Assembly (NCBI GenBank): GCA_016187035.1
Contig: JACPKL010000010.1
Span: 94,616-158,615 of the forward strand
Source of the DNA: Candidatus Daviesbacteria bacterium
Lineage (GTDB): Bacteria; Patescibacteriota; Microgenomatia; Daviesbacterales; UBA10151
Length of the DNA: 64,000 nucleotides
Direction of reading: 5' to 3'
Of the stretch, positions 4,293-54,733 are shown piece by piece (position 1 is the stretch's first letter; each line of letters begins with the position of its first letter). The notes under the pieces were generated by a model. It did no database searches, was not told where the DNA came from, and was given only the letters and a program-made list of their open reading frames with translations. Made by a program: the position numbers and the translations under genes.

Positions 4293-5984
4293 TCACACTT
4301 CTACTATTATAGATAAAATCAATGGCCTTCTTAGAGTAGCTTGATAAAAAAACCTTTCCAAGGTATCCTCAACTAATTTCCGCGTAAATCTCCAGTCTGA
4401 AATTTTATGATGATGCTTATCTAAGTTATTTTTTAATAAAGTTTTAGCCTCATCTAACAATCCGCCAGATTGTTCCTCAAACACAAAACCCCTTGAGATT
4501 ACATCTATTTCTCCCTCTGATTTACCGCTATGTTGATCAATCGGCACAACCACCACCACTATTCCTTCCTCACTCATAACTTTTCTATCTCTTAACACCA
4601 CATGTCCTACATCACCAATCCCTAAACCATCCACAAAAACATTTTGCACCTCAATTCGATTTGATACTTTCATATTATCTGGTTTCACTTCTAAGATATC
4701 TCCGTCTAGAACTTGTAAGATTTTGTCTGTTTCATAACCCATGTTTGTAAAAACTTGAGAAAACTTTTTCATATGTCTGTAGGTCCCTCCAATTGGCATC
4801 ATAAATTTTGGTTTAATTAAATTTACCATAAGTCTTAATTCTTCCAAAGCTGCATGTCCTGAAACATGCAAAGAATCTGTAATAGCTGAATAATAAACAT
4901 TCGCTCCGAGTGTAGTTAAAGAATCAATTAAAGCATTTTGAGCAGATTCAGTAGAAGGAATTGGATCTGCTGAAAAAAGTACACTATCCCCCACTTTTAA
5001 TTTGATCAGTTTATGCTCTTCATTGGCAACTCTTGATAAAGAAGAATCTGGCTGACCTTGAGCTCCAGCAATTAAGACTAATAATCTATTAGGAGCAAAA
5101 GAATTAATAGCATCTGAAGCTATCATAACTGAAGGAGGAACATGTAGATAACCTAAATCTCTTGATACTTGAAAATTATTTTCAAAAGATCGCCCTACTA
5201 CAGCAACTTTTCTACCTAATCTTTGGGAAACATTAATTGCTTGCTGCATTCTGGAAACATTTGAGGATGTCATAGTTATCAGTAACTTCCCTTTAGTTTC
5301 CCGCGCAACCTGTTCAAAAGACTCCTCAATTGATTTTTCTGACTTATTAAAACCAGGTTTGTCTATTCTTAAGCAATCTATTAGTAGCAGTAAAACGCCT
5401 TCTGCTCCCAGACGGGAAACTGTTGATACATCAGTTACTTGTCCTGAAACTGGTGTCCAATCTATTTTAAAATCTGCTTGATGAATAATCAAACCAACTG
5501 GAGTTCTTAAAACTACTCCTGTTGAATCAGGCACAGAGTGAGAAACTTGATAAAAAGAAACTTTAAAACATCCTAAATTTAACTCCTCGTTAATTTTTAC
5601 TTCAAATATTTTATTTTTAGGTAAATTGTGTTCAGAAAATTTTGCTTTAATAAATCCAGCAGTAAGTTTTTGAGTATAAATAGGTACTTGAAGCTCTGGC
5701 CAAATATATGGTAATCCTCCTATATGATCTTCATGACCGTGAGTAATGATTATTCCTCTGATTTTATTTATTCTTTCCCGAAGATATGATATATCAGGAA
5801 TAACCAAATCCACACCTGGCATAGCTTCATCAGGGAAACCAACCCCACAATCTATAATGACAATATCATTATCATATTCATAAATATACATATTTTTGGT
5901 AACATCACCTACTCCACCTAAAGGAATTAATTTTAAACTCTGCCCTTTATCTAACATAAATTGCTTTGGGTGAAATATCTTCAT
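4293..5984 (-). CDS. rnj: ribonuclease J
   Basis: Metallo-beta-lactamase HGHEDHIGG motif with the beta-CASP architecture, 563 aa. Confidence 0.9.
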   Translation of the reverse strand: MKIFHPKQFMLDKGQSLKLIPLGGVGDVTKNMYIYEYDNDIVIIDCGVGFPDEAMPGVDLVIPDISYLRERINKIRGIIITHGHEDHIGGLPYIWPELQVPIYTQKLTAGFIKAKFSEHNLPKNKIFEVKINEELNLGCFKVSFYQVSHSVPDSTGVVLRTPVGLIIHQADFKIDWTPVSGQVTDVSTVSRLGAEGVLLLLIDCLRIDKPGFNKSEKSIEESFEQVARETKGKLLITMTSSNVSRMQQAINVSQRLGRKVAVVGRSFENNFQVSRDLGYLHVPPSVMIASDAINSFAPNRLLVLIAGAQGQPDSSLSRVANEEHKLIKLKVGDSVLFSADPIPSTESAQNALIDSLTTLGANVYYSAITDSLHVSGHAALEELRLMVNLIKPKFMMPIGGTYRHMKKFSQVFTNMGYETDKILQVLDGDILEVKPDNMKVSNRIEVQNVFVDGLGIGDVGHVVLRDRKVMSEEGIVVVVVPIDQHSGKSEGEIDVISRGFVFEEQSGGLLDEAKTLLKNNLDKHHHKISDWRFTRKLVEDTLERFFYQATLRRPLILSIIVEV

Positions 5985-9128: not shown

Positions 9129-11507
9129 TTAACGGTCAAATCCGCCTCTACCACCGCGACCTCCGCGGTCTCTTCCGCCTCTACCAAATCCACCAGTTCT
9201 GCCTCTCCCTCCAAACCTATCCTGGGTTCTATCAAAGGACCCGCCACTTCTACCGCCTCCACTGCCAAAGCTTGGACGATTACCAAATCCTCCACTTCTG
9301 GGTCTACCCGCTTCGCCAAAGCGAGGCGAATCGCCAAAAGAGGAACGAGATCTAAAACCTCCGCCTTCTCTCGGTCTAAAATTTCCACCACCAGTAGGCC
9401 TCCCCTCGGTCTCTGGTTTAATATTTGCCCCAAAAAGCATTGATAAACCAATCTTTCCGTCAGGAGAAACATCAGTTACCCTAACCTTTACCTCTTGACC
9501 TTCTAAGACTACATCTTCTGGTCTGTTAACATGTCCAGGTGCCATTTGGGAAATATGCACCAACCCATCTTTGCCAGGAGCAATTTCTACAAACGCCCCA
9601 AACGGAGCAAGTCGCACGACCCTACCACTCAACTCATCTCCTACATTAAAGCTTTTAAACATACCATGAATAGAAGCAATTGCTGCATCAACTCCTTCGG
9701 GATTGACGCCTGAGATCATCACTGTCCCATCATCCTCGATATCAATTTGAGCGCCTGTTTTAGAAATAATTGAGTTAATAGTTTTTCCACCTGTGCCGAT
9801 TAAAAGCCCTATCTCTTCTGGTTTGATATGCAAAATTTCAACTCTTGGGGCATGAGGAGATAAAGGCCCTGCACTAGGAATAACTTTATCCATTTGTTCT
9901 AAAAGTTGTATCCTGGCTTTGCCACCCATATTAAGGGCTTGCTCAATTATGTCAAAGGTTAAACCTTCCAGCTTAGTATCCATCTGAATGGCAGTAATTC
10001 CATTTTTAGTACCTGCTATTTTAAAATCCATCTCTCCGTAAAAGTCTTCCACTGCCCTCATATCTGTTACTACCTGAGTTTTTTTCTCATCGGAAAACAG
10101 CCCCAATGCAATTCCAGCAACAGGCTCTATCAGAGGTACACCAGCATTCAGTAAAGCTAAAGTGGTTCCACAAACTGCAGCCATAGAAGTTGAGGCATTG
10201 GCTGCTAATACTTCAGATACTACTCTGATTGCGTATGGGAATTGATCTTCTTTTGGAACAACTGCTATGATGGCTTTTTCAGCCAAAGCACCATGACCAA
10301 TATCACGTCTGTTAGGAGCAGCCAGTCTTTTAACCTCACCTACAGAAAATGGATTAATACTCATATTATAATGGTGCATAAACCTTTTTTGTCTTTCCCC
10401 TTCCATCCCATCCAAAGTTTGCTTCAAAGAAGGAGCCCCCAGTGTTACAACAGATAAAACTTGAGTGTCTCCTCTTTGGAAAAGTGCGCTGCCATGAGTT
10501 CTTGGCAAAATTCCAACTTCTATCTGAATTGGCCTAATCTCATCCATAACTCTCCCATCTACTCTTTTACCTTTTTCCAAAACCTCTTTCTGTAAAATTT
10601 CTTTGGCAACTTTGTCAAAAATGCCTGATATAACTTGTTCTGTTAAAGCTTCTGCGTATTGGGTAGCAAGCTCTTTTTTAATCAAATCACCAGTTGCCTC
10701 ATGCCAAGGGTGCTCATTATCAAACAAAGCCTTTTCGATTCGTTCTTTGGTAATTTTAGATACTTCTTTAAGTAACGCCTCTTCAATTTCCTCCTCTAGA
10801 TGGGAGTAGGTCTGTTTCGTTTTACCAGCAACTTTCCCAAATTCTTCAATCAAAGAAATAATTGGTTGGGCTTGTGCATAAGCTTCTTTAATCCCTGCAA
10901 AAACTAACTCGTCTTTAACCTGATTAGCCCCTGTTTCTATCATGACAACTTTGTCTTTGGTAGAAGCTACTAAAAGATCCATATTAAGATGTTCTATCTC
11001 ATTAATAGTGGGATTGACTACTAAACTGCCTTCTCTTTCACCGATTCTTACTCCAGCAATTGGGCCTTTCCAAGGAATAGAAGAGATAGATAAAGCAGCT
11101 GATGCACCGATTAAACCAACAATATCAGGATCGTTTGCCTGATCTACAGATAATACAGTCAAAATTACTTGCACCTCATGCATTTTAAAATCTTTAGGAA
11201 AAAGCGGGCGGATGGAACGATCCACTAATCTGCCTGTTAAAACAGCTTCATCAGTGGGTCTAGTCTCTCTTTTGATAAATTTTGAGGAAGAAATTCTACC
11301 TCCAGCATAATGTTTTTCTACATACTCAACTGAGAGAGGAAAATAACCAATATCTTCTTTTAAAGGTTGTGTGGCAACTGTTGCTAAAATTACAGTTTCA
11401 CCCCAAGACACTAAAACAGAAGCATCTGCTTGCAGAGCTAACTTGCCTGTTTCTAATTTCAACTTACGACCATTAAGATCGATTTCTTTTACTATAACTT
11501 TGTTCAT
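9129..11507 (-). CDS. pnp: polyribonucleotide nucleotidyltransferase (PNPase) with a C-terminal Arg/Gly-rich (RGG) tail
   Basis: Two RNase PH domains, KH and S1 domains, then an RGG/FGG tail of about 95 aa encoded by GC-rich DNA at 9129-9420. Confidence 0.95.
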   Translation of the reverse strand: MNKVIVKEIDLNGRKLKLETGKLALQADASVLVSWGETVILATVATQPLKEDIGYFPLSVEYVEKHYAGGRISSSKFIKRETRPTDEAVLTGRLVDRSIRPLFPKDFKMHEVQVILTVLSVDQANDPDIVGLIGASAALSISSIPWKGPIAGVRIGEREGSLVVNPTINEIEHLNMDLLVASTKDKVVMIETGANQVKDELVFAGIKEAYAQAQPIISLIEEFGKVAGKTKQTYSHLEEEIEEALLKEVSKITKERIEKALFDNEHPWHEATGDLIKKELATQYAEALTEQVISGIFDKVAKEILQKEVLEKGKRVDGRVMDEIRPIQIEVGILPRTHGSALFQRGDTQVLSVVTLGAPSLKQTLDGMEGERQKRFMHHYNMSINPFSVGEVKRLAAPNRRDIGHGALAEKAIIAVVPKEDQFPYAIRVVSEVLAANASTSMAAVCGTTLALLNAGVPLIEPVAGIALGLFSDEKKTQVVTDMRAVEDFYGEMDFKIAGTKNGITAIQMDTKLEGLTFDIIEQALNMGGKARIQLLEQMDKVIPSAGPLSPHAPRVEILHIKPEEIGLLIGTGGKTINSIISKTGAQIDIEDDGTVMISGVNPEGVDAAIASIHGMFKSFNVGDELSGRVVRLAPFGAFVEIAPGKDGLVHISQMAPGHVNRPEDVVLEGQEVKVRVTDVSPDGKIGLSMLFGANIKPETEGRPTGGGNFRPREGGGFRSRSSFGDSPRFGEAGRPRSGGFGNRPSFGSGGGRSGGSFDRTQDRFGGRGRTGGFGRGGRDRGGRGGRGGFDR

Positions 11508-24225: not shown

Positions 24226-24259
24226 TTTGTCATCCCCAACTTGATTGGGGATCCATATA
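24226..24259 (-). repeat. palindromic repeat copy 1 immediately 5' of the dnaJ start codon
   Basis: tttgtcatccccaacttgattggggatccatata, forming the hairpin atcccca/tggggat. Confidence 0.6.
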
Positions 24260-24261
24260 GA

Positions 24262-24816
24262 TTATTGCTTAATAGCTTTTAAAACTATATGAATTCTACC
24301 TTGTGCAACTATTGTACTGTTTCCGAAATATTTCTGAAATATTCTCTCAATGACTGGTTTAATATGATTTTGTACCACTAAATAAACTTCACCATTTTCT
24401 TTTAAGTGTCTATGGCATTCGCTAACCAGCTCTTCTAAAAATTCATTTCCCATGTCTTGAGGAGGATTACAATAAATTTGATGATAAGTTCGCTCTTGAA
24501 CGGATGAAAAAAGGTCACTTAAATAAACTTCAACGTTTTTAAAATTATTTGAAGTTGCATTCTCTTTTGCCAATTCTATAACTCTTAAACTATCATCCAA
24601 TAAATGAACATGACCTTTTGGATTTAATTTCGCAGCTACAAAACCAATTACCCCAGTACCGCAACCTAAATCTACCACTAAACTACCGTTGGGAATCTCC
24701 AAGTTATCTATCAAGAGTTTGGTTCCTAAATCCAAGCCCTTCTCAGAAAACACTCCTGGTCTAGTTTTAAATTTGATTTCAAACCCCCTTATATATTCGG
24801 TAATTATGTTATTCAT
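24262..24816 (-). CDS. class I SAM-dependent methyltransferase (small MTS domain; RsmC/PrmA-like)
   Basis: VVDLGCGTGVIG motif, 184 aa. Confidence 0.7.
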   Translation of the reverse strand: MNNIITEYIRGFEIKFKTRPGVFSEKGLDLGTKLLIDNLEIPNGSLVVDLGCGTGVIGFVAAKLNPKGHVHLLDDSLRVIELAKENATSNNFKNVEVYLSDLFSSVQERTYHQIYCNPPQDMGNEFLEELVSECHRHLKENGEVYLVVQNHIKPVIERIFQKYFGNSTIVAQGRIHIVLKAIKQ

Positions 24817-24824
24817 AAATCTCT

Positions 24825-24858
24825 TTTGTCATCCCCAATCTAATCGGGATCCATATTA
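24825..24858 (-). repeat. palindromic repeat copy 2 immediately 5' of the methyltransferase start codon
   Basis: tttgtcatccccaatctaatcgggatccatatta, nearly identical to copy 1. Confidence 0.6.
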
Positions 24859-25140
24859 TACGATTTTTGAATATAAATCTTTCCATTTTGGATTATTTTT
24901 TTCTATTAGTTCTATTTTCCATTGTCTATTCCATTGCTTGAGTCTTTTCTCTCTTAATATTGCTTGATTACTATCTTCATAAAGTTCAAAGTAAACCAAA
25001 TTATGGATCTGGTATTTACTTGTAAAACCCTCTACTAAATCATTTTTATGTTCGTAAATTCGTCTTATTAAATTATCAGTTACCCCAATATATAGTGTTC
25101 CATTTCTTCTACTTGCGAGTATATAAACGAAGTATTGCAT
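24856..25140 (-). CDS. GIY-YIG nuclease-family protein (UPF0213-like)
   Basis: YFVYILASRRNGTLYIGVTDNLIRRIYEH GIY-YIG core, 94 aa. Confidence 0.8.
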   Translation of the reverse strand: MQYFVYILASRRNGTLYIGVTDNLIRRIYEHKNDLVEGFTSKYQIHNLVYFELYEDSNQAILREKRLKQWNRQWKIELIEKNNPKWKDLYSKIV

Positions 25141-25145
25141 TTATA

Positions 25146-25172
25146 GATTCCCGCTTTCGCGGGAATGACAAA
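25146..25172 (-). repeat. related minimal hairpin (gtcattcccgcgaaagcgggaatc on the minus strand) between the dnaK stop and the GIY-YIG start
   Basis: Perfect GC-rich hairpin with the same GTCAT...GGGAAT-type termini. Confidence 0.5.
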
Positions 25173-25178
25173 TTGGAG

Positions 25179-27098
25179 TTATTCTTTTTTGTCTTCTTCT
25201 ACCACTTCACCTTCCACAGCCTCCTCAGTTTTGGGAGCTGCTTCCTCTTTGGGTTGCTCATCTGTTGGTTGTTCTGCTCCTGGCTGAGGTCCAGGCTGTC
25301 CACTTGGCTGTTGATACATAGCAGCTCCTACTTTTTGGGCTGACTCAGCCAAAGCGTCTGCTTTGGTTTTAATATCCTCTGTTGAACCAGATTTTAGGGC
25401 TTCTTTCAGCTCATTTATTTTTTGCTCAACTTCAGTCCTGACTTCAGCCGATACTTTATCCGAAGCATCCTTTAAAGTCCGCTCAGTTGAATAAACCAGG
25501 CTGTCAGCAGTGTTTTTTACCTCAATTCCCTCTTTTCTCTTTTTATCCTCCTCAGCATGAGCTTCTGCTTCCTTTGTCATTTTCTCTACTTCATCTTTGG
25601 ACAAACCTGTGGAACCGGTAATAGTAATTTTTTGTTCTTTGTTGGTAGCTTTATCTTTGGCTGAAACATTTAAAATGCCATTAGCGTCAATATCAAAGGT
25701 AACTTCAACTTGTGGCACACCCCTGGGAGCAGGAGGAATTCCGTCCAAAACAAACCTGCCTAAAGATTTATTATCAGCTGCCATCTCCCTTTCACCTTGT
25801 AATACATTAATTTCTACAGCCGGCTGGTTATCTGCAGCTGTTGAAAATACCTCAGATTTTGAAGTAGGAATAGTAGTATTTCTTGGGATTAATGGCGTCC
25901 TTACTCCACCTAAGGTTTCTATACCTAAAGTCAGGGGAGTCACATCTAAAAGCAGCACGTCTTTAACTTCTCCTCCCAACACTCCACCCTGGATAGCAGC
26001 TCCCACAGCTACCACTTCATCGGGGTTAATCCCTTTGTGCGGTTCTTTGCCAAAAAAGTCTTGGACCGACCTTTGACAGAGGGGCATCCTGGTCATTCCA
26101 CCCACCAGCACTACTTCATCAACATCTTTTGCTTCTATCTTGGCATCTTTTAAGGCAGCTTTAACAGCATCAAAGGTCTTGTCAATTAAAGGTTTAACCA
26201 TAGCTTCAAGTTTTGCTCTTGACAGCTTCATCTCCAAATGCTTGGGGCCAGAGGCATCAGCTGTGATAAAGGGAATGGAGATTGCTGCCTCCTGGGTTGA
26301 GGACAATTCAATTTTCGCTTTTTCTGCAGCATCCCTTAACCTTTGCAAAGCCTGTCTGTCGCCTTTAAGATCAATTCCCTGCTCTTTTTTAAATTCTTCT
26401 GCTAACCAGTCCAAAATCACCTGGTCAAAATCATCTCCACCCAAATGAGTATCACCATTAGTTGATTTAACCTCAAATACACCGTCTCCCAACTCAAGGA
26501 TGGAGATATCAAAAGTTCCGCCACCTAAATCATAAACAGCAATGGTATGTGCGTGAGCTTTATCCAAACCATAAGCCAAAGCAGCAGCAGTCGGCTCATT
26601 AATAATCCTTTGAACATTTAACCCGGCTATTTCACCAGCTTGTTTGGTGGCTTGCCTTTGGGCGTCATCAAAATAGGCCGGAACTGTGATAACTGCATCT
26701 GTCACTTTCTCACCCAAATAGCCTTCAGCATCTGCTTTAATCTTTTGTAAAATCTGGGCAGAAATTTCCTGGGGGGTATACTCATGGCCTTCTACTTCCA
26801 CAACAGCCATACCTTCCCTGCCTTCTTTGATAGTGTAAGGAAGCCATTTAATATCTCTTTGCACTTCAGGATCTTTAAACTTTCTGCCCATTAACCTCTT
26901 GATAGAAAAGATGGTTTCTTTAGGGTTTACTACAGCCTGTCTTTTGGCTACCCTGCCAACAATGTTTTTAATAGGATTAACAACAGAAGGGATAATATTT
27001 TCCCCCTCAGCACTATGAATAACTTTGGGCTTACCACCTTCCATTACAGCCACGGCAGAATTGGTTGTTCCTAAATCAATGCCTACAATTTTGCTCAT
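25179..27098 (-). CDS. dnaK: chaperone DnaK (Hsp70)
   Basis: [18 protein letters not shown] and related motifs. A canonical AAGGAGG Shine-Dalgarno lies upstream. Its start overlaps the grpE stop. Confidence 0.95.
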
Positions 27099-27649
27099 AT
27101 TGCCTCCTTAATAGATCCTTCGGCTCGTCCGCCTTCGGCGAGACTTCGCTCAGGATGATCGTTTGACTTTCGTCCCACGATCACCTGAGCAGGCCTAATT
27201 ACCTTATCATTTAAAGTATAACCTTTTCTGACTACTTTTAATATTTTATTATCATCCCCCTCTGCTGTGTCAACTGCTTCATGAAGGGCAGGATCAAATA
27301 CTCCGTCTGCAGGTATCTGATCCAACCCCTCCTGAGCTAATACCTGATTAAACTCTTTTACTGCCAGCTCTACCCCCTTAAACCACCCATTCAACTCGCT
27401 TCGCTCGCTCAGGGCGGGACCGCTCTGCTTATCTTGCTCTGATATCCCTGTTAAAGCTTGCTCCAAATGATCTAGAACAGGCAGCAATCTTTTAACCAAT
27501 TCCGCTCCCACAAAACTAGTTAATTCAGATCTACCCTGACTAACCCTTGATTCCAAATTCCTGTAATCAGCCACTGCTCTTTTCAACTGAGAATCTAACT
27601 CAGCAATTTTTTGTTCTAATTCTTTAACTTTGTCTTGTTTTTTTGCCAT
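27095..27649 (-). CDS. grpE: nucleotide exchange factor GrpE with GC-rich insertion-like patches
   Basis: GrpE coiled-coil and beta-domain. GC-rich segments at 27110-27190 and 27396-27432. Confidence 0.85.
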
Positions 27650-27650
27650 A

Positions 27651-28382
27651 TTAACTCCTTAACATTACCTCAGTCACCAAATCCCTGATATATTTAACAT
27701 AAGGCAAAACCAAAGCAAAATTCATCCTGGCAGGACCAACTACTCCTAATACACCAGATTTATCAGCAAGTCCAGAATATCTAGTAAACACAAATCCTGT
27801 TGGCTTCAAGTTCTCAAATTCCATATCCTCTCCAAACAAAATATGGATTGGATCGCTGCCTGTAGCCCGACCGATAATCTCTTGTAACCTTGGGTTCTCA
27901 TCAAATAAACCTAACACAAAACGAGTCACATCAATATCGTAAAACTCAGGCCAATCCAAAATATTGGCTGCTCCTGCCCAGTAGAGTTGACTCTCGTCAT
28001 CTATGGCCAACCCTAGCATATCACACTTTTGCGCTAGAGTAGAGACTGCTTCCTTCAGTAATCTTTCTCTTTTATACCTTTCCTGCCATAGCTTTTCTTT
28101 AATAGAGACCTCAGCTGTGATAGGTAAAGTCTTTTCCTTCATCAGCTCAGCAACATATAATCTAAAACCCATGGAGGTTGGTATCCTGCCTGCGCTGGTA
28201 TGCGGTTGTCTTAAAAACCCTGCCTCAGTTAATTTCACCATCTCAATCCTGATGGTAGCAGGGGAGACTCCCAAATCATACTTCCTTTCAATTATCTCAG
28301 AACCAACAGGTTCTGCACCCTCAATATATTCTTCAACAATTGCTTTTAAAAGCGCTTTTTGTCTGTCAGTCAAATCTGTCAT
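27651..28382 (-). CDS. hrcA: heat-inducible transcription repressor HrcA
   Basis: N-terminal winged HTH (RQKALLKAIVEEYIEGAEPVGSE), 243 aa. Confidence 0.8.
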   Translation of the reverse strand: MTDLTDRQKALLKAIVEEYIEGAEPVGSEIIERKYDLGVSPATIRIEMVKLTEAGFLRQPHTSAGRIPTSMGFRLYVAELMKEKTLPITAEVSIKEKLWQERYKRERLLKEAVSTLAQKCDMLGLAIDDESQLYWAGAANILDWPEFYDIDVTRFVLGLFDENPRLQEIIGRATGSDPIHILFGEDMEFENLKPTGFVFTRYSGLADKSGVLGVVGPARMNFALVLPYVKYIRDLVTEVMLRS

Positions 28383-28385
28383 AGA

Positions 28386-28412
28386 TTAGCACTAATCTAT
28401 CATGACTGCTAA
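28386..28412. promoter_or_regulatory. CIRCE-like operator (TTAGCACTA-N9-GACTGCTAA) overlapping a TTGACA-N17-TAGATT promoter for hrcA
   Basis: Matches 16 of 18 arm positions of the CIRCE consensus TTAGCACTC-N9-GAGTGCTAA, 4 bp upstream of the hrcA ATG. Confidence 0.65.
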
Positions 28413-28674: not shown

Positions 28675-28745
28675 CTTTTACTTATCAGGATATTAGTCCT
28701 CAAATTATTAGACCAATCATTCCACCTGAAATATGTGTACCAATT

Positions 28746-39131: not shown

Positions 39132-39761
39132 AAATTCTGCTTGGGGTTTTTCTAAAAGGCCGGATTTTATTTTGAAATCTATATCTAAAATATTTTTATA
39201 AAGATTTATTATTTTTTCTAAATTAAAATTTTTTCTTTGTCTTTCCAATTTTTCCCTCATAAACGGTTTTGCCCCTTTGGGAGTAACTGCTAAATTCCTT
39301 AACAGATAAAAAACCATGGTAATAAAATATTGCATTTCAAACCCTGCATTTTTTAATTTTTCTATCTCTATAAAAGCTTTTTTGTCGGAAGTTGCCAAAT
39401 AATCTAAAAACGGAAAAACAGATACTTCTCTAGCTTCCGGGAAAAAGAGAATCTGTCCTTTACTGCTTTCAACCCATTTAATAACAGCTTTTTTCTGATT
39501 GACCTCATGGTCAAACCACATGATGAGTTGGTAGTTGGTAGTTGGTAGTTGGTAGTTGGTAAAATCTTCCGGAGGATTTTCTAAGATGATTAATCGGAGA
39601 TCTGAGAAAAGTAAAGGAGTGACTAGAGCGCCTAATATGGTTTGCAAATCAAATCCTTCTTCAAAAACTACTACATTATTTGTATCAAATCCTTGTTTTA
39701 AATCTATTAATTTTTTTCTTGAAGCAGTTTTAGCGGACCCGTGCAGCAGCAGTAGCTTCAT
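39099..39761 (-). CDS. DNA polymerase III delta subunit-like (HolA-like, short), containing an in-frame heptanucleotide microsatellite
   Basis: N-terminal LLLHG...FSDLRLIIL resembles HolA. A (TACCAAC)x5 repeat encodes TNYQLPTTNYQL. Confidence 0.45.
   Translation of the reverse strand: MKLLLLHGSAKTASRKKLIDLKQGFDTNNVVVFEEGFDLQTILGALVTPLLFSDLRLIILENPPEDFTNYQLPTTNYQLIMWFDHEVNQKKAVIKWVESSKGQILFFPEAREVSVFPFLDYLATSDKKAFIEIEKLKNAGFEMQYFITMVFYLLRNLAVTPKGAKPFMREKLERQRKNFNLEKIINLYKNILDIDFKIKSGLLEKPQAEFLLVNLFCHQV
39527..39561. repeat. (GTTGGTA)x5 perfect tandem heptanucleotide repeat inside a CDS
   Basis: 35-bp perfect array at 39527-39561. Confidence 0.9.
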
Positions 39762-43822: not shown

Positions 43823-43859
43823 TATGCAAGTAGGTATTACTCATGGAAGAAACATTACT

Positions 43860-44120
43860 ATGAGAGAATTGGAAACCACCCTGACGCAGAAGGGTCAAGT
43901 GACAATCCCCGTGGAGATCCGTTCCCGCCTGGGCCTGAAACCGAAAGATAAGGTGCGGTTTGAAGTGGAGGGGGATGAAGTCAAGATCAAGCCCGCGCCC
44001 TCGCGCATTGCCCGCCACTTTGGGGCGGTGGCTGTATCTGGAAAGTCGCTGGATTGGCGAGTCGAGCGGAAGGCGTTTGAGGAAGGCGTGGCCGAGGAGG
44101 TAGTGGCCGAGGATCGGTGA
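43860..44120 (+). CDS. vapB: AbrB/MazE (SpoVT-AbrB) family antitoxin VapB
   Basis: TLTQKGQVTIPVEIRSRLGLKPKDKVRFEVEGDEVKIKP swapped-hairpin motif in GC-rich DNA. Overlaps vapC by 4 bp. Confidence 0.75.
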   Translation: MRELETTLTQKGQVTIPVEIRSRLGLKPKDKVRFEVEGDEVKIKPAPSRIARHFGAVAVSGKSLDWRVERKAFEEGVAEEVVAEDR

Positions 44121-44542
44121 TGTCTATGCCACGCTTCCTGGACACCAATATCCTGCTGCGCTACTTCACAGGCAGTGGTAGCGAGAAGGCCCTGGCAGCC
44201 AAAGTACTGCTTGAGCGCATAGAACAGAGCGAGGAGAAGGTAGTCATCTCCGTACTGGTGGTGTTTGAGACAATTTTCACCCTACAGCGCACCTACAAGG
44301 TGCCCAAGGTCAAGATCCGCGAGATGGTCGGCGATGTGATCGCCCTGCGCGGTGTCCAACTCACGGGCAAACGGCTATGCTTGCAAGCCTTGGATCTCTA
44401 TGTGGGAAAAAACATCTCCTTCGCCGACGCCTACAACGTCATCTACATGCAGTCGCAGCAGTTCTCGGAGATCTACAGCTGGGATACCGACTTTGACAGG
44501 ATCGAGGGCATTACTCGCATTGAGCCAGCCCAGGATATGTAA
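44117..44542 (+). CDS. vapC: PIN-domain toxin VapC
   Basis: FLDTNILLRYF N-terminal PIN motif and conserved acidic residues, in GC-rich DNA. Confidence 0.8.
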   Translation: MMSMPRFLDTNILLRYFTGSGSEKALAAKVLLERIEQSEEKVVISVLVVFETIFTLQRTYKVPKVKIREMVGDVIALRGVQLTGKRLCLQALDLYVGKNISFADAYNVIYMQSQQFSEIYSWDTDFDRIEGITRIEPAQDM

Positions 44543-44647: not shown

Positions 44648-46651
44648 ATGCCCACTTCGCAAAAGCTCAGTGTAAACTTTCTTGATGACTTAAATTCCAT
44701 TCAACAAAAAGCGGTTAAAACAACTGAGGGACCGGTATTAATTTTGGCCGGGGCTGGCTCCGGCAAAACCAGGGTGTTAACTTACCGCGTAGCTTATTTG
44801 ATTGCTGAGAAAAAGATTCCTCCTGAAAATATCCTTTGCCTGACCTTCACAAATAAAGCTGCTGGAGAAATGATGGATCGTATTTTAAAACTTTTGGACC
44901 ACCAGCTACCAGCTACTAACTACCAACTACCTATTATGGGCACTTTTCATTCTTTTTGTGCCAAAATCCTAAGACGTGATGGCAAAGCCTTAGGATTGCC
45001 TCCTGGCTTTACCGTATATGATGAATCCGATGCATTAGATGCTATAAAAGAAGCTATGGGTAATTTGAATATTCCGACCCAAAAAACTTCTCCTTTTTCA
45101 GTAAGACACACTATTTCTTCAGCTAAAAATGAATTAATTTCTGCACTTGAATACCCACAATATGCCAGAGGGTATTTCCAGGAAACTGTAGCTAAAATTT
45201 ATTTAGAATATCAGAAGATTTTAGAGAAAAATAAAGCCCTGGATTTTGATGACCTGCTGCTGACAACTATTAAGCTGTTTCAAACAGAACCAGCTATATT
45301 GACCCGCTATCAAATTCAATTCCGTTATATCTTAATAGATGAATACCAGGATACCAACCCTGCTCAATATCTGATTTCAAAATATTTAGCAAACAGGCAT
45401 AAAAATATTTGTGTAGTCGGGGATGCTTCACAATCTGTGTATTCTTTCAGAGGAGCAGATTTCAGAAACATTGTTAATTTTCAAAAAGACTACCCAAACG
45501 CTAAAGTTTTTAACCTGGAGCAAAATTACCGCTCTACCCAAAATATCCTGGATGCAGCCCATGCTGTAATTTCTAAAAATAAATTACATCCTATTTTGAA
45601 ACTTTGGACAAATAAAAATGGGGGAGAAAAAATTGAAATAGTGGAGGTAAGAAATGAAATTGAGGAAGCTCTATTTATCTTGTCCACCATAGATCACCTC
45701 CGAGGTGTAAGCGCATTTTTTCACCTCGGAGGTGTAGCCGTGCTTTATAGAACTAATGCCCAATCCCGTGCTTTAGAAGAACAATTTTTAAAATCTGGTA
45801 TCCCTTATAAATTAGTTGGTGGAGTAAGCTTTTACGAGAGAAGAGAGATTAAAGATATTTTATCCTACCTTAGGTTACTGCAAAATCCTAAGGACTCTGT
45901 ATCTTTAAAAAGAGCAGAAAAAATTGGCAAAGGAAGACTGGGAAAAGTTTTAGGATTCTCAGCGTCATTGCGGGGAATCGGACCGAGCGAAGCCAAGTCA
46001 GACTTGGTTTCGCCAAGTCTGACTTGGCGAAGCGAGGGAGATCGCTTGCAAAATGCGAAGCATTTTGACAAGGGCTCGAGTGAAACGAGCGGCCCTTCAG
46101 GCCTCGGAATGACCACAATCGAGCTATTAGATCAACTTCTAGCAAAAACAGGCTATTTGGCTTATTTGGATGATGGAACAGATGAAGGAGGGGGCAGGGT
46201 GGAAAATGTTAAAGAACTTAGGTCGGTAGCAGAAGAGTTTCCTAGTTTAGTCCAATTTTTAGAGAACGTGGCTTTGGTGGAAAATGGTTTTCTGCCTTCT
46301 TCTGAAAAAAATATTCAGCAAGACGTAGTAACTTTAATGACCCTGCATTCTGCTAAAGGCTTGGAGTTTCCGACAGTTTTTATGGTAGGAATGGAGGAAG
46401 GACTATTCCCCCATTCACGCTCTATGCTAAATCCTCAGGAACTTGAAGAGGAAAGAAGGCTTTGTTATGTGGGCATCACCAGGGCAAAAGAAAAATTATA
46501 TTTAACTTACAGCAGGCAAAGATTATATTTTGGCACCAGATCTAATAATTTAGTTTCCCGCTTTTTATCTGATATTCCCCAAGACTTAATTTCCTCTAAC
46601 ACAAACTTCAAAAACCAAGATCAAGATAATGAAGATTGGTTAAACACATGA
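44648..46651 (+). CDS. uvrD: ATP-dependent DNA helicase UvrD/PcrA, carrying an in-frame palindromic insert
   Basis: AGAGSGKTRVLT Walker A and UvrD motifs throughout. Insert at about 45965-46113. Confidence 0.9.
   Translation: MPTSQKLSVNFLDDLNSIQQKAVKTTEGPVLILAGAGSGKTRVLTYRVAYLIAEKKIPPENILCLTFTNKAAGEMMDRILKLLDHQLPATNYQLPIMGTFHSFCAKILRRDGKALGLPPGFTVYDESDALDAIKEAMGNLNIPTQKTSPFSVRHTISSAKNELISALEYPQYARGYFQETVAKIYLEYQKILEKNKALDFDDLLLTTIKLFQTEPAILTRYQIQFRYILIDEYQDTNPAQYLISKYLANRHKNICVVGDASQSVYSFRGADFRNIVNFQKDYPNAKVFNLEQNYRSTQNILDAAHAVISKNKLHPILKLWTNKNGGEKIEIVEVRNEIEEALFILSTIDHLRGVSAFFHLGGVAVLYRTNAQSRALEEQFLKSGIPYKLVGGVSFYERREIKDILSYLRLLQNPKDSVSLKRAEKIGKGRLGKVLGFSASLRGIGPSEAKSDLVSPSLTWRSEGDRLQNAKHFDKGSSETSGPSGLGMTTIELLDQLLAKTGYLAYLDDGTDEGGGRVENVKELRSVAEEFPSLVQFLENVALVENGFLPSSEKNIQQDVVTLMTLHSAKGLEFPTVFMVGMEEGLFPHSRSMLNPQELEEERRLCYVGITRAKEKLYLTYSRQRLYFGTRSNNLVSRFLSDIPQDLISSNTNFKNQDQDNEDWLNT
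45965..46113 (+). repeat. GC-rich palindromic element (GTCATTGCGGGG...CCTCGGAATGAC termini) inserted in-frame in uvrD
   Basis: Imperfect 12-bp terminal inverted repeats, internal palindromes ccaagtcagacttgg x2, and GC far above the local value. The ORF stays open across it. Confidence 0.65.
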
Positions 46652-50622: not shown

Positions 50623-51705
50623 ATGGATTTAAGGCCAATAGCTGACAAACAAAAATCTCAATACAACAAATTAGTTACTCATGTTATCCAGTCATGGGAG
50701 TGGGGAGAATTTAGAAAATCATTAGGGTTACCGGTTTTAAGATATGGGCTTTTTGAAGCTAACCAACTTACTGCAGCTTTTCAACTGACTTTGCACAAAA
50801 TACCTTTTACTAACAAATATGCCGGCTATTTACCAAAAGGCCCTGCTTCTGATTCGCAACTAGCTGAGGCTTTGGAAAAGATTGGCAGAAAACATAATTG
50901 CGCTTTTATCAAGCTGGAACCTAATATCCCCGTCATTGCGAGCGAAGCGAAGCAATCTTCTACCTTAACTAATAAGATTGCCACAGTACGTTCAGTTGAC
51001 ATGAACGTACCTCGTAATGACAAATTAGTAGATAAAAGTTTTATTCCTTCTCCAAAACCATTATTTACTAAATATAATTTTGTTTTGGATCTAACACAAT
51101 CAGAAGAGCAAATTTTAAAAAACATGCATTCAAAAACCAGATACAATATTAAACTAGCTCAAAAACATGAAGTAAAAGTTGAAGAAAAAACTGATGATGA
51201 AGCTTTTAAGATTTATTTAAAATTATATTTTGAAACAACTAAAAGGCAAGGTTACCATGGACATAATGAGTATTATCACCAAAAGGTTTGGGAAACTTTA
51301 AAAAAAACAGGAATGGCCAGATTACTGATTGCCTCATACAAAAACGAGCCTTTAACTGCCTGGATGCTTTTGAATTTCAAAGACACCCTTTATTACCCTT
51401 ATGGCGGATCTAACAAAAACCATCCGGAAGTAATGGCCAGTAACTTGATAGCCTGGGAAGCTATAACTTTAGGTAAAAAGCTGAAGCTTAAAAAGTTTGA
51501 TATGTGGGGAGCTTTGGGACCTGATGCTAATTCCAAAGATCCCTGGTATGGATTTCATAGATTTAAAGCTGGTTTCGGAGGAAAACTCATAGAATATATC
51601 GGCACTTATGATTTAGTCTTTGACTGGCCACTTTACTGGATGTTTACTTTAATAGATAAATTAACACCACTAAAAGTCTTTCTGTTAAAATTACTTGGAA
51701 AATAG
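50623..51705 (+). CDS. FemAB-family peptidoglycan interpeptide-bridge peptidyltransferase, carrying an in-frame palindromic insert
   Basis: FemAB/MurM-like N-terminus (HVIQSWEWGEF) and a GNAT-like C-terminal half. Insert at 50932-51021. Confidence 0.7.
   Translation: MDLRPIADKQKSQYNKLVTHVIQSWEWGEFRKSLGLPVLRYGLFEANQLTAAFQLTLHKIPFTNKYAGYLPKGPASDSQLAEALEKIGRKHNCAFIKLEPNIPVIASEAKQSSTLTNKIATVRSVDMNVPRNDKLVDKSFIPSPKPLFTKYNFVLDLTQSEEQILKNMHSKTRYNIKLAQKHEVKVEEKTDDEAFKIYLKLYFETTKRQGYHGHNEYYHQKVWETLKKTGMARLLIASYKNEPLTAWMLLNFKDTLYYPYGGSNKNHPEVMASNLIAWEAITLGKKLKLKKFDMWGALGPDANSKDPWYGFHRFKAGFGGKLIEYIGTYDLVFDWPLYWMFTLIDKLTPLKVFLLKLLGK
50932..51021 (+). repeat. 90-bp GC-rich palindromic element with perfect 11-bp terminal inverted repeats GTCATTGCGAG / CTCGTAATGAC, in-frame in the FemAB-like CDS
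   Basis: Shares its ends, core (gcgaagcaatcttc...aataagattgccac) and translation frame with the sbcD copy. Confidence 0.7.
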
Positions 51706-52284: not shown

Positions 52285-53468
52285 TGTACGATCGTACAAG
52301 CAATTGGTACGGCTTTTGTAATCTGCTCAAGTCTCTCGTTTCTAATTGTATACAAATCCTCTATTCTGACCCCACCAAACATAGGAATATAAATCCCAGG
52401 CTCTATGGAAAAAACCATTCCTGTCTTTAAAACTTCCTTGCTTTTGGGTGAAAGGGAAGGATGTTCATGAACTTCAAGTCCTATCCCATGACCTAAGGAG
52501 TGAGGTAAATTCGGATAACCCTTAGACTTAATATAATCCCTGGCTACTTTGTCTACATCTGCTGACTGCACTTGCTTAGTAGAATTAATATAGTCTACTG
52601 CTTTCTTTTGTGCTTCTAAAGCTACCTCGTACATTTCCTGTTGTTTCCTGATAGGTTTTCCAAAAAATACAGTCCTGGTCATATCAGAACAATAATTTTC
52701 CCATTTTACTCCGAAATCGAGAAGGACGATTAGTCCTTCTCGTCCTGAGCGAGACTTCGACGGTGAGCTCAGTCGAACCGCGGAGCGAGTCGCACGTTCG
52801 ACAAGCTCAGTGCGACCCTGAGCGACAGTCGAATGGGTCGAAAGACCCAAAACAGTTTGTCCAGTTTGATGATGCGGTATAGCAGAATTTTTACCAAAAG
52901 CAACTATAGCTGGAAAAGAAAACTCTCCTCCTTGCCCTTTAATAAAATCCTCCAATTTATTAGCAATTTCTTTTTCAGTTACACCTATTTTAATCTGTTT
53001 TAAAATATACTCAAAAGCCAAATCCCCTATCTTACAAGCCTTTTTTATTTTCTTTATTTCATCAGGAGTTTTTATGCTCCTATTTAATTTAAAATGTTTT
53101 GTGGTTTTAAAATGCTTTTTTACTAATTTTGCCTCTAGTACAGTTAAATTATCCTCCTCTATTCCTAAAATTTTAATTTGATTTTTTAGCTTTTTAAACA
53201 ACTGTTCCGTTGGTGTTTGATGACTTCTTTCAAAAAGTTCAAAATGTGGCACTTGTTTTTTTATGGCATGGGTATATCTGCCATCAGTAATAATATATTG
53301 AAGATTATTTCCTATTATTAAGTAGGCTTCTCTTTCTTCCTTTGAAAAATTAGCATAACCTGTCAGATAAGTAATATTAGAAACAGAGGAAATAAAAACT
53401 GCATCTAATTTTCTTTCTTTAAGATTTTCCCTGATATTTTTTAATCTGGTTACAAACATGCCCCACAT
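52281..53468 (-). CDS. pepP: Xaa-Pro aminopeptidase (M24B), carrying a GC-rich in-frame insert
   Basis: Creatinase-like N-domain with M24 metal ligands (HGIGLEVHE) at the C-terminus. GC-rich insert at about 52745-52855. Confidence 0.8.
   Translation of the reverse strand: MWGMFVTRLKNIRENLKERKLDAVFISSVSNITYLTGYANFSKEEREAYLIIGNNLQYIITDGRYTHAIKKQVPHFELFERSHQTPTEQLFKKLKNQIKILGIEEDNLTVLEAKLVKKHFKTTKHFKLNRSIKTPDEIKKIKKACKIGDLAFEYILKQIKIGVTEKEIANKLEDFIKGQGGEFSFPAIVAFGKNSAIPHHQTGQTVLGLSTHSTVAQGRTELVERATRSAVRLSSPSKSRSGREGLIVLLDFGVKWENYCSDMTRTVFFGKPIRKQQEMYEVALEAQKKAVDYINSTKQVQSADVDKVARDYIKSKGYPNLPHSLGHGIGLEVHEHPSLSPKSKEVLKTGMVFSIEPGIYIPMFGGVRIEDLYTIRNERLEQITKAVPIACTIVH
52285..52298. repeat. TGTACGATCGTACA palindrome at a convergent gene junction
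   Basis: Perfect 14-bp palindrome between the 51778..52284 (+) and pepP (-) stops. Confidence 0.6.
52745..52855 (-). repeat. GC-rich palindromic in-frame insert within pepP, related to the grpE patch by the shared 11-mer gcgagacttcg
   Basis: Multiple internal inverted repeats (gctcagg/cctgagc, gggtctttcgaccc). Encodes HSTVAQGRTELVERATRSAVRLSSPSKSRSGREG. Confidence 0.55.
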
Positions 53469-53488: not shown

Positions 53489-54733
53489 TTGATGAAACTT
53501 CTTCATTTTTCTGATCTTCATATTGGGATGGAAAATTATGCTAAATTGGATCCTGAAACAGGATTATCCTCAAGACTTTTGGACTTTTTTAAAACTTTTG
53601 ATTTTATTGTTGAAACTGCTTTTACAGAAGATGTTGATGCTGTTATTTTTGCTGGAGATGCTTATAAAACCCGTGACCCAAACCCTACCCAGCAAAGAGG
53701 TTTTGGTGAAAGAATTAAAAAACTAGCCAAAAAAATCCCGGTAATATTGGTCGTGGGAAACCACGATACTCCTAATGCTGACGGCAAAGCTAATACTTTG
53801 GATATATATTCTGCTTTGGAAATAGAAAATGTTTTGGTATCAAGAAAACCTGAGTACTTAGAAATCTCCACTAAATCAGGCTCCTTACAAATTATCACTC
53901 TTCCCTGGCTGCATAAAAATGACTACAAAACAATCGGGGATAAACTGCAACTGCAGTATGACAAAATCAAACCTTCCTCTCCTGCTATACTTTTATCACA
54001 TGCTGAAGTAGAAGGAGCAACATATGGGTCTGAAAAAGGCCTGGCAATTGCAAATGATGTGACTATTCCCCTGCCTCTTTTACAGGATAAAAGAATATCT
54101 TATGCGGCTTTAGGCCATATCCACAAACATCAAGTTTTATCAAAAAACCCTTTGGTTGTTTACTGCGGCTCTCCCCAAAGGATTGATTTCGGAGAAGAAA
54201 AGGAAGAAAAAGGCATATGCCTTGTGGAAATAAGTCCCTCTTTGTCATTGCGAGCGACAGCGAAGCAATCTTCCACCTCCAATAATAAGATTGCCACGTC
54301 CTCGTCTACGGCGACTCCTCGCAATGACGGTTTTACCGCCTCTTTTCAATTTATCCCTACCAATGCCAGAAAATTTTTAACCATTATCGTTAATTTAAAA
54401 AACGGACAAGAAAACCCTACTCAAACCATTCTGGAAGAAATTCAAAATTATGATATTAAAGACAAGATAGTCAGGCTGATTATAAACATCCCTGCTGATT
54501 GTAATAAAGAAATCCATATGGACAAAATTAAAAAAGCTTTATCCGCCTCTCACCTGATTGCCGGTATTTCCAGAAATGTGGAAAGAGTAGAAAGGGTGAA
54601 GTTTGATGGAGGGAAAGAAGTGGAAACTTTAACACCAGTTATGGCTTTAAGAAAATATTTTGAGTTTAAAAAATACCCTCTTCAAAAACAAAAAGAGTTG
54701 GAAAAATACGCTGCCCAGCTGTTAGATAGTTAA
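53489..54733 (+). CDS. sbcD: exonuclease SbcD (Mre11-like), carrying an in-frame palindromic insert
   Basis: LLHFSDLHIG phosphoesterase motif I. Insert at 54244-54328. Confidence 0.85.
   Translation: MMKLLHFSDLHIGMENYAKLDPETGLSSRLLDFFKTFDFIVETAFTEDVDAVIFAGDAYKTRDPNPTQQRGFGERIKKLAKKIPVILVVGNHDTPNADGKANTLDIYSALEIENVLVSRKPEYLEISTKSGSLQIITLPWLHKNDYKTIGDKLQLQYDKIKPSSPAILLSHAEVEGATYGSEKGLAIANDVTIPLPLLQDKRISYAALGHIHKHQVLSKNPLVVYCGSPQRIDFGEEKEEKGICLVEISPSLSLRATAKQSSTSNNKIATSSSTATPRNDGFTASFQFIPTNARKFLTIIVNLKNGQENPTQTILEEIQNYDIKDKIVRLIINIPADCNKEIHMDKIKKALSASHLIAGISRNVERVERVKFDGGKEVETLTPVMALRKYFEFKKYPLQKQKELEKYAAQLLDS
54244..54328 (+). repeat. 85-bp GC-rich palindromic element with 11-bp TIRs GTCATTGCGAG / CTCGCAATGAC, within sbcD
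   Basis: Encodes ...RATAKQSSTSNNKIATSSSTATPRND..., paralleling the FemAB copy (...SEAKQSSTLTNKIAT...PRND...). Confidence 0.7.

Follow-up and report, generated by a model that had tools for sequence, protein, structure and literature searches.

Background

Palindromic repeats that lie in frame within genes are known from Rickettsia (PMC10969869, PMC1779305), where the Rickettsia palindromic elements (RPEs) measure 100-150 bp and are defined by hidden Markov models derived from Rickettsia (PMC1779305). The present study concerns three elements of comparable behaviour in a stretch of 64,000 nucleotides (nt), hereafter the window, from a Candidatus Daviesbacteria bacterium of the Patescibacteriota (contig JACPKL010000010.1, positions 94,616 to 158,615), situated in frame in a FemAB-family gene, an sbcD/mre11-like gene and uvrD/pcrA, and their relation to the hairpin arms that flank genes of small GIY-YIG nucleases of the SsnA type. 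To our knowledge no enzyme has been tied to RPEs, and the entry and persistence of palindromic repeats in coding genes has been an open matter since RPEs were described in 2000 (Ogata et al.).

The SsnA system was described by Chenal et al. 2025, who defined the Neisseria NTS, CGTCATTCCCGCGMAVGCGGGAATCYRG, and the wider Ssn-related motifs (SRM) (PMC11893778). The NTS is bound only as single-stranded DNA by SsnA, a single-domain GIY-YIG protein of 94 amino acids (aa) which cuts a few nt upstream; the three bases before the palindrome (GTC) matter for cleavage and the C after the palindrome for binding (PMC11893778). The ssnA genes are distributed over many phyla and are typically flanked by NTS/SRM hairpins, only 2% of the NTS in N. 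meningitidis are found within genes, and Rickettsia and Wolbachia are among the genomes with more than 300 SRM motifs (PMC11893778). The published SRM pattern reads HGTCWYN(0-2)YYVSBRHN(0-5)WNVSBRGN(0-2)RNCYNB.

Two further kinds of repeat are relevant for comparison. Repetitive extragenic palindromes (REPs) and the bacterial interspersed mosaic elements (BIMEs) have a GTAG head and are associated with a REP-associated tyrosine transposase (RAYT; Y1, HUH), which recognises them in single-stranded form, and REPs are extragenic by definition. Bacterial MITEs (transposable elements of miniature size with inverted repeats) found inside genes include ERIC, Correia, BOX and QMITE (PMC10969869).

Structure of the in-frame elements

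The element in the FemAB-family gene is a 90 nt nested palindrome (50932-51021, plus strand) encoding aa 104-133, VIASEAKQSSTLTNKIATVRSVDMNVPRND. Its left arm (50932-50960, plus strand) reads GTC-ATTGC-GAGCGAAGCGAA-GCAAT-C-TTC, the first 26 nt being the 26-mer found across phyla that is treated below, and its right arm (50974-51021, minus strand) has the minus-strand reading GTCATTACGAG-(10-bp-stem hairpin)-GCAATCTT. The sbcD/mre11-like gene contains an 85 nt nested palindrome (54244-54328, plus strand) in frame at about aa 252-280, SLRATAKQSSTSNNKIATSSSTATPRND, with arms at 54244-54273 on the plus and 54287-54328 on the minus strand, and in uvrD/pcrA a 150 nt composite palindrome (45964-46113, plus strand) is in frame at about aa 440-489. 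An earlier note, made from the letters of the window, had placed the elements in these genes and held that none of them breaks the frame. Both statements stand, the start of the uvrD element being corrected from 45965 to 45964, as all three lie inside uninterrupted open reading frames (ORFs; FemAB 50623-51705, sbcD 53489-54733, uvrD 44648-46651), the products of which match the Pfam families FemAB, Metallophos (calcineurin-like phosphoesterase, with Mre11/SbcD as structural relatives) and UvrD (UvrD/PcrA).

The termini of all three elements are GTCATT and AATGAC, and those in FemAB and sbcD consist of two arms in opposite orientation: one strand reads GTCATTGC-(loop)-GCAATCTT, and the other strand repeats this layout. 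When the window was searched for the terminal 11-mer GTCATTGCGAG with at most one mismatch, 7 matches were obtained against 0.37 expected (0 of 100 shuffles reached 7), six of which are the ends of the three elements, in three pairs. Over 11 nt the two termini of an element are complementary at 10 positions in FemAB, 11 in sbcD and 9 in uvrD, which together with the enrichment bears out the shared terminal inverted repeats that had been proposed. The common core of the FemAB and sbcD copies could likewise be recovered, 39 nt at 90% identity with the peptides ...AKQSS...NKIAT...PRND as first quoted. A GC content of 55-60% for all copies was mistaken; the values are 43% for FemAB, 53% for sbcD and 56% for uvrD in a window of 36.5%. 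Folding, suggested earlier as a check, showed whole elements to be far more stable than their shuffles both as RNA (z -5.4 to -7.5) and as DNA (z -5.0 to -7.6).

It had also been claimed that the FemAB and sbcD copies are translated in the same element frame. This holds from AKQSS onward, where an additional C in the arm of sbcD (85 nt instead of 84) restores the frame common with FemAB, and not for the left ends, which are read in different frames (VIAS... in FemAB and SLRA... in sbcD). The uvrD element, previously counted as a third copy, is indeed palindromic and in frame but carries different, hybrid heads, GTCATTGCGGG and on the other strand GTCATTCCGAG, together with three GCGAAGC motifs and four internal hairpins, and the GCAATC inner stem is missing; by its composition it is to be read as a composite relative of the FemAB and sbcD elements rather than as another copy of the same element. 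The oligonucleotide d(GCGAAGC) forms a DNA mini-hairpin of unusual stability, and the motif is enriched in the window (10 matches, 1.9 expected), six of the matches falling within the three elements.

A general scan for GTCAT followed by a perfect 6-bp hairpin gave no enrichment (8 against 7.3 in shuffles) and is uninformative, since only specific families exceed the shuffles. No Rfam family was matched in the whole window at gathering thresholds, and a search of a plasmid collection returned three weak matches with no annotation beneath them.

Orthologues and insertion hot spots

The FemAB protein was aligned with 120 orthologues of 65-76% identity, and a syntenic comparison covered six Daviesbacteria loci from independent assemblies (ENA, NCBI, JGI); loci outside the window are denoted by L and a number. 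In most of the 120 orthologues the FemAB element is absent or different. The segment that follows IK-x-EP-[ND] and extends to F140 is hypervariable, with a mode of 13 aa (47/120), a minimum of 7-9 and a maximum of 59, and long inserts of 22-59 aa are present in 29 of the orthologues. These have at least four types of head, which by their first codons can be recognised as VIAS (GTCATTGCGAG), VIPSE (GTCATTCCGAG), VIL (GTCATyCTGAG) and VIPA (VIPANAGIQ, NTS-like), and nearly all of them finish in xND, i.e. AATGAC. Only two of the 29 share the type of insert with their nearest neighbour. In many alleles a decayed older head precedes a newer one by a few codons (e.g. DVTLNSSS-VIAS, NVTLSSP-VIPSE, DAIANIHP-VILSE), an arrangement that, as far as the sequences go, fits a nuclease cutting just upstream of an existing head without being proof of it. 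The FemAB hot spot of L006 is also occupied, at 10283-10369, by a heptamer repeat, (ACTACCA/GGTAGTT)n (LLPTTNYQLPTT), which in the window is found in frame in uvrD (44898-44936, QLPATNYQLP) and at 39526-39561.

The uvrD element is absent from L001, L003, L004 and L006, and in L005 a different element of 60 nt, GTCATCCTGAG...CTCAGAATGAC, is located at the same codon. Comparing the empty site of L001 with the filled site of L005, the right flank is identical in 33 of 33 positions, with GTCAT and ATGAC exactly at the two boundaries. The sbcD element, which begins directly after the last residue alignable to the Mre11 nuclease domain, is absent from four syntenic orthologues, and L001 has an unrelated perfect 13-bp palindrome at this site. 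The alignment with orthologues that the earlier note had recommended accordingly gave either no insert or a different palindrome at the same codon. The three sequences are almost certainly in-frame insertions relative to the orthologues, and the same codons are struck repeatedly by different subfamilies.

Another in-frame palindrome is located in uvrD of the window at 45684-45743 (plus strand), CACCTCCGAGGTG...CACCTCGGAGGTG, giving HLRG...HLGG. L001 has the stem of this palindrome with a longer loop, and it has the appearance of an older insert, common to both, at a site that varies.

That frames are intact in every case could also be expected if the segments were native, functionally selected parts of the proteins, or were removed before the mature protein in the manner of introns or inteins, and a genuine intein (PF14890) is indeed inserted after GDASQ in the uvrD orthologue of L003 (4848-7808). 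Against such an explanation, which we regard as very improbable, close orthologues do not have the segments, one and the same codon is taken up by different sequences depending on lineage, and the frame in which the same DNA is translated varies with the gene; furthermore no intein or splicing motifs were seen and Rfam gave no match in the window, and removal at the RNA level would not require a sequence that is stop-free and in frame. The intein of L003 means that uvrD hosts protein-level as well as DNA-level selfish elements in different lineages.

Short-read assembly can suffer from GC-rich hairpins, and many of the related GIY-YIG contigs treated below are very short, so that artefacts of assembly or chimeras had to be considered. 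They are hardly credible when homologous inserts with intact frames recur at the same codons in ENA, NCBI and JGI assemblies that are independent of one another, and when the FemAB protein is identical to an NCBI record on a 176-kb contig.

In an AlphaFold2 model of the FemAB protein, with a mean predicted local distance difference test score (pLDDT) of 89 and a predicted template modelling score (pTM) of 0.84, the pLDDT falls below 50 solely at residues 106-130, which correspond to the insert and have no secondary structure. The insert is thus modelled as the only disordered loop of the protein, in agreement with the loop location that had been anticipated for this copy. Each element is open in two to three of six reading frames, so that a sizeable fraction of random insertions would keep the ORF intact and selection could remove the remainder.

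Occurrence of the arm in other phyla

Exact copies of the 26 nt left arm of the FemAB element, GTCATTGCGAGCGAAGCGAAGCAATC, were found in many phyla, on at least 120 genome stretches, and the family is therefore peculiar neither to this Daviesbacteria genome nor to the candidate phyla radiation (CPR). The hosts include Bradyrhizobium, Sphingomonadales, Rickettsiales, Legionellales, Coxiellaceae, Planctomycetota, Chloroflexota, Bacteroidota, Calothrix (Cyanobacteria), Omnitrophota and Deltaproteobacteria, among others. These genome loci contain 96 complete dimers that agree in both the outer and the inner stem, of the form GTCATTGCGAG..GCAATCC(AG)..(CT)GGATTGC..CTCGCAATGAC and mostly 73-120 nt long. 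The exact arm also occurs in 105 viral-contig stretches of IMG/VR (L212-L316), where no GIY-YIG homologue was found near the 26-mer.

In the other phyla the 26-mer is mostly intergenic, 27.5% of its sites being in long ORFs (at least 60 flanking codons) compared to 69.8% of random positions, and in low-GC loci the corresponding values are 5.6% and 55%. In about 176 kb of Daviesbacteria sequence, six of the eight GTCAT...ATGAC dimers are in frame within genes and two are intergenic. Intergenic copies in other phyla agree letter for letter with the FemAB arm, and a single inserted C is all that sets the sbcD arm apart; since the frame of the arm varies here and the arm lies between genes elsewhere, the conservation must act on the DNA and not on the peptide.

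When compared with RPEs, these are likewise short palindromic repeats, both intergenic and coding, which enter unrelated housekeeping genes without breaking the frame, are lacking in the orthologues, occupy loops and have more than one open reading frame. They differ in that the host belongs to the Patescibacteria and not to the Rickettsiales, that two of the window elements (85 and 90 nt) are below 100-150 bp, the third being 150 nt, that they are GC-rich in an AT-rich genome, and that the arm, which is the same in many phyla, can be linked with a nuclease gene. The identity with RPEs suggested by the earlier note holds for the behaviour, in frame in housekeeping genes and absent from orthologues; no link at the sequence level was found. 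A common ancestry with RPE-1 to RPE-10, which would make the elements true members of the RPE family, could draw on this behaviour, on the abundance of SRM motifs in Rickettsia and Wolbachia (PMC11893778) and on a metagenome-assembled genome of Rickettsiales (L054) with GTCATTGCGAG...CTCGCAATGAC elements of 176-252 nt and AT-rich interiors. It is nevertheless improbable, as no family was found at E<=10 when all open frames of the elements were searched against NCBIfam, a library in which the presence of RPE models is unconfirmed, as RPEs measure 100-150 bp and are defined from Rickettsia (PMC1779305), and as the arms are GC-rich, the host is patescibacterial and the FemAB left arm is identical in many non-rickettsial phyla.

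GIY-YIG nuclease genes flanked by the same arms

The window contains a gene of its own for an SsnA-like GIY-YIG nuclease (24856-25140, minus strand), a single-domain protein of 94 aa (Pfam PF01541, E=3.8e-15, residues 2-76), the same length as SsnA of N. meningitidis. Y6, Y17 and E64, the residues mutated in the SsnA study (PMC11893778), are present and invariant in the alignment (A3). Homologues with 70-80% identity are found in several phyla, and the best match in PDB is 1zg2 (UPF0213) with E=0.02. Only 2 nt upstream of the start codon lies a hairpin close to the Neisseria NTS consensus, TGTCATTCCCGCGAAAGCGGGAATCTAT (25143-25170, minus strand). The published SRM pattern is matched here and nowhere else in the 64 kb (0.09 expected), and as DNA the hairpin folds with -9.0 kcal/mol (z -5.0). 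An inverted GTCAT-headed hairpin, GTCATCCCCAATCTAATCGGGATCC (24828-24852, plus strand), can be read from the sequence just downstream of the gene, and a second one, GTCATCCCCAACTTGATTGGGGATC (24229-24253, plus strand), follows the methyltransferase ORF at 24262-24816 (minus strand).

The order hrcA-grpE-dnaK-ssnA-methyltransferase-dnaJ is the same in another Daviesbacteria genome (L127), the proteins being 73% identical. In both genomes the ssnA-like gene and a small MTS-family methyltransferase are situated between dnaK and dnaJ (window 24262-25170, minus strand; L127 2880-4080) and are each bracketed by GTCAT-headed hairpins, and L127 has two identical NTS-type heads of 35 nt at this place, forming dimers. 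A similar picture was obtained for 80 close metagenomic relatives of the window protein, with a forward GTCAT head at most 150 nt upstream in 62 of 79 and an inverted head downstream in 61 of 75, almost all of the NTS type. Relatives on viral contigs show the same arrangement of heads.

The arms of the in-frame elements are found around a different group of GIY-YIG genes, here called the L019-like clade, the proteins of which are about 49% identical to that of the window. In all five members examined, L019 (Planctomycetota), L115 (an alphaproteobacterium), L358/L366, L368 and L369, the gene is placed between GTCATTGCGAG-loop-GCAATCTC and GAGATTGC-loop-CTCGCAATGAC, the upstream arm of which can also be written GTCATTGCGA(G)-loop-GCAATCTC, and the stop codon is often within the downstream arm. 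Repeats of the GTCATyCTGAG type likewise flank a GIY-YIG gene in L042. Because the same arms flank the L019-clade nuclease genes, the window elements can be seen as an L019-type unit without its gene, related to it as a MITE is to its parent, and the arms are very probably the terminal repeats of an SsnA-type unit.

Compared with the NTS and SRM, both arms of the FemAB and sbcD elements contain GTC-ATTGC...GCAAT-C where the NTS has CGTC-ATTCCCGC...GCGGGAAT-C, i.e. a GTC(AT) head, a palindrome from ATT to AAT and then a C, and the layout of repeat, nuclease gene and inverted repeat is the same. A position at the flanks of SsnA-family genes, which characterises the SRM, is seen for GTCATTGCGA-type arms in 5/5 genes examined of the L019 clade and not in the window itself. 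The elements differ from SRM in that their arms barely fold alone, in contrast to the stable NTS of the window, and in that they are arm-to-arm dimers without a gene, placed inside genes and translated. In layout and gene association they are a variant of the SRM/SsnA system, outside the published pattern and distinguished by the gene-less dimers within genes.

With REPs and BIMEs they have in common the hairpin repeats with a conserved non-palindromic head, the inverted pairs, the position at the flanks of an enzyme gene and the dispersed forms without a gene, but the head is GTCAT and not GTAG and the associated enzyme is GIY-YIG and not HUH/Y1. The resemblance to MITEs lies in the small size, the terminal inverted repeats shared with a longer gene-carrying unit and the occasional ORF fusions in frame. 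Unlike the case of MITEs, no target-site duplication was seen, the partner gene is not a known transposase, and the location in frame within genes, seen in most of the Daviesbacteria copies (6/8), is not an occasional outcome.

Possible routes of spread

With moderate confidence we propose that the elements are gene-less, MITE-like copies of an SsnA-type hairpin unit, mobilised by the nuclease and landed in permissive loops. The full unit would consist of a gene for a small GIY-YIG nuclease of single-stranded DNA between two inverted arms, present in many phyla, each arm being made of GTC, a palindrome (ATTGC...GCAAT) and a C as in the Neisseria NTS and the SRM. In this Daviesbacteria genome arm-to-arm dimers of 85-150 nt would have landed in permissive loops of housekeeping proteins, where they may persist because they are stop-free in several frames and because frame-breaking copies are eliminated by selection. 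Acting on extruded or single-stranded hairpins, an SsnA-type nuclease would make breaks through which elements spread or are replaced, and an existing head may attract the next event and so give rise to hot spots.

Several observations weigh against this proposal. None of the three in-frame elements matches the published SRM pattern, and a single arm has little stability when folded as DNA (-2.7 and -3.7 kcal/mol, z about 0), in contrast to the complete dimer. The GIY-YIG protein of the window belongs to the NTS-type clade (GTCATTCC[CGT]GC heads) and not to the GTCATTGCGAG clade, and since its close relatives are flanked by NTS-type and not by GTCATTGCGAG-type hairpins the resident gene is not an obvious cognate enzyme. 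The window and some 118 kb from related Daviesbacteria loci gave no gene of the L019 type, the 26-mer adjoins a GIY-YIG gene in only 2 of 225 loci that carry it, and a GIY-YIG homologue is present in only 3 of 120 genome loci with the 26-mer (at least 120 being known). Target-site duplications were seen neither at the L005/L001 pair of uvrD nor at the window copies, and the window copies have diverged from one another, which gives no sign of very recent copying. Finally, SsnA has been demonstrated as a nuclease that lowers transformation and not as a transposase (PMC11893778). The role of SsnA as mobilising enzyme is for these reasons put forward tentatively, at somewhat less than even chances.

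The main rival is a spread by some other route, be it a Y1/RAYT-type transposase, replication slippage or template switching at hairpins, or gene conversion by single-stranded DNA taken up in natural transformation, with SsnA merely restricting or regulating the DNA that carries the repeats, as is described for Neisseria. The sole demonstrated role of SsnA, an NTS-dependent drop in transformation (PMC11893778), agrees with this, as does the missing target-site duplication, and in the hrcA-dnaJ cluster of the two Daviesbacteria ssnA is syntenic and apparently stationary (73% protein identity). L127 moreover has a Y1_Tnp gene (IS200/IS605 or RAYT-like; 5132-5782, minus strand) flanked by REP-like hairpins of its own (ATATCACACCCTTGGGGTGTGATAT). 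These hairpins are unrelated to the elements (ATATCACACCC...), however, no Y1_Tnp was found in the window by tblastn, and GIY-YIG genes were in 5/5 cases enclosed, as repeat, gene and repeat, by exactly the arms of the element. Spread without the nuclease is on this evidence rather unlikely, roughly a one-in-four matter in our judgement, and mobilisation of the gene-less units by an SsnA-type nuclease remains the preferred interpretation.

A wider version of the preferred interpretation, which we regard as doubtful, would make SsnA-type nucleases with GTCAT-headed hairpins the missing machinery of coding palindromes of the RPE kind. Cuts a few nt upstream of old heads would then seed hot spots at the level of the codon, with new or replacement dimers landing beside the old ones, and in CPR, which have almost no intergenic DNA, the survivors would be translated loops in essential proteins.

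Other repeats in the window and neighbouring loci

The in-frame palindromic inserts are not limited to the three genes, and the earlier note overlooked GC-rich ones in pepP, at the second uvrD site and, as candidates, in grpE, as well as the SsnA-like gene with its NTS. The insert in pepP, the gene for an Xaa-Pro aminopeptidase (M24), is a GC-rich nested palindrome of 108 nt (52740-52847, minus strand) that is in frame and lengthens the protein by about 33 aa. None of the six syntenic orthologues has it, and it belongs to a different repeat family (...TTCGACAAGCTCAGTGCGACCCTGAGCGACAGTCGAA...). In grpE (27095-27649) there are two further in-frame segments that are GC-rich and repeat-like, at about 27385-27420 and at 27100-27165 (minus strand), one with GCGAAGC (12 aa) and the other forming a C-terminal tail of 15 aa that resembles an arm of the GTCATCCTGAGCGAAG type.

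A family of palindromes of 30-40 nt centred on TACGATCGTA is found at 28741, 28773, 32775, 52277 and 63650 (repeat families D2, D10, I1 and I3). At the start of hrcA (28378-28406) there is a perfect palindrome, GTCATAGATTAGCACTAATCTATGAC, which may be an operator with CIRCE-like half sites rather than a repeat element.

Directly upstream of uvrD (43824-44542, plus strand) an island of 676 nt has a GC content of 68%, against 36% for the genome, and codes for a MazE/AbrB-type antitoxin and a PIN toxin. This toxin-antitoxin island is probably a recent horizontal acquisition.

Conclusions

The phenomenon itself has precedent, both the RPE-like behaviour and the SRM/SsnA system being known. A full-text search of the literature found no paper describing such elements in CPR genomes, as the earlier note had supposed, and none linking GIY-YIG nucleases to RPEs or RPE-like insertions; when the terminal sequences were searched for in full text, unrelated primers were the only matches apart from the Ssn paper, found through GTCATTCCCGC.

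The arms of the in-frame elements recur as terminal repeats in a class of nucleases for single-stranded DNA that is known biochemically. The elements thereby gain a candidate enzyme, and the question whether SsnA cuts these elements, and where, becomes a testable one. An arm of 26 nt is conserved exactly across many phyla, and essential enzymes of a CPR lineage have had the same surface loops reshaped repeatedly by the repeats, which has a practical bearing on gene annotation in CPR, on the alignment of orthologues and on work with protein structures.

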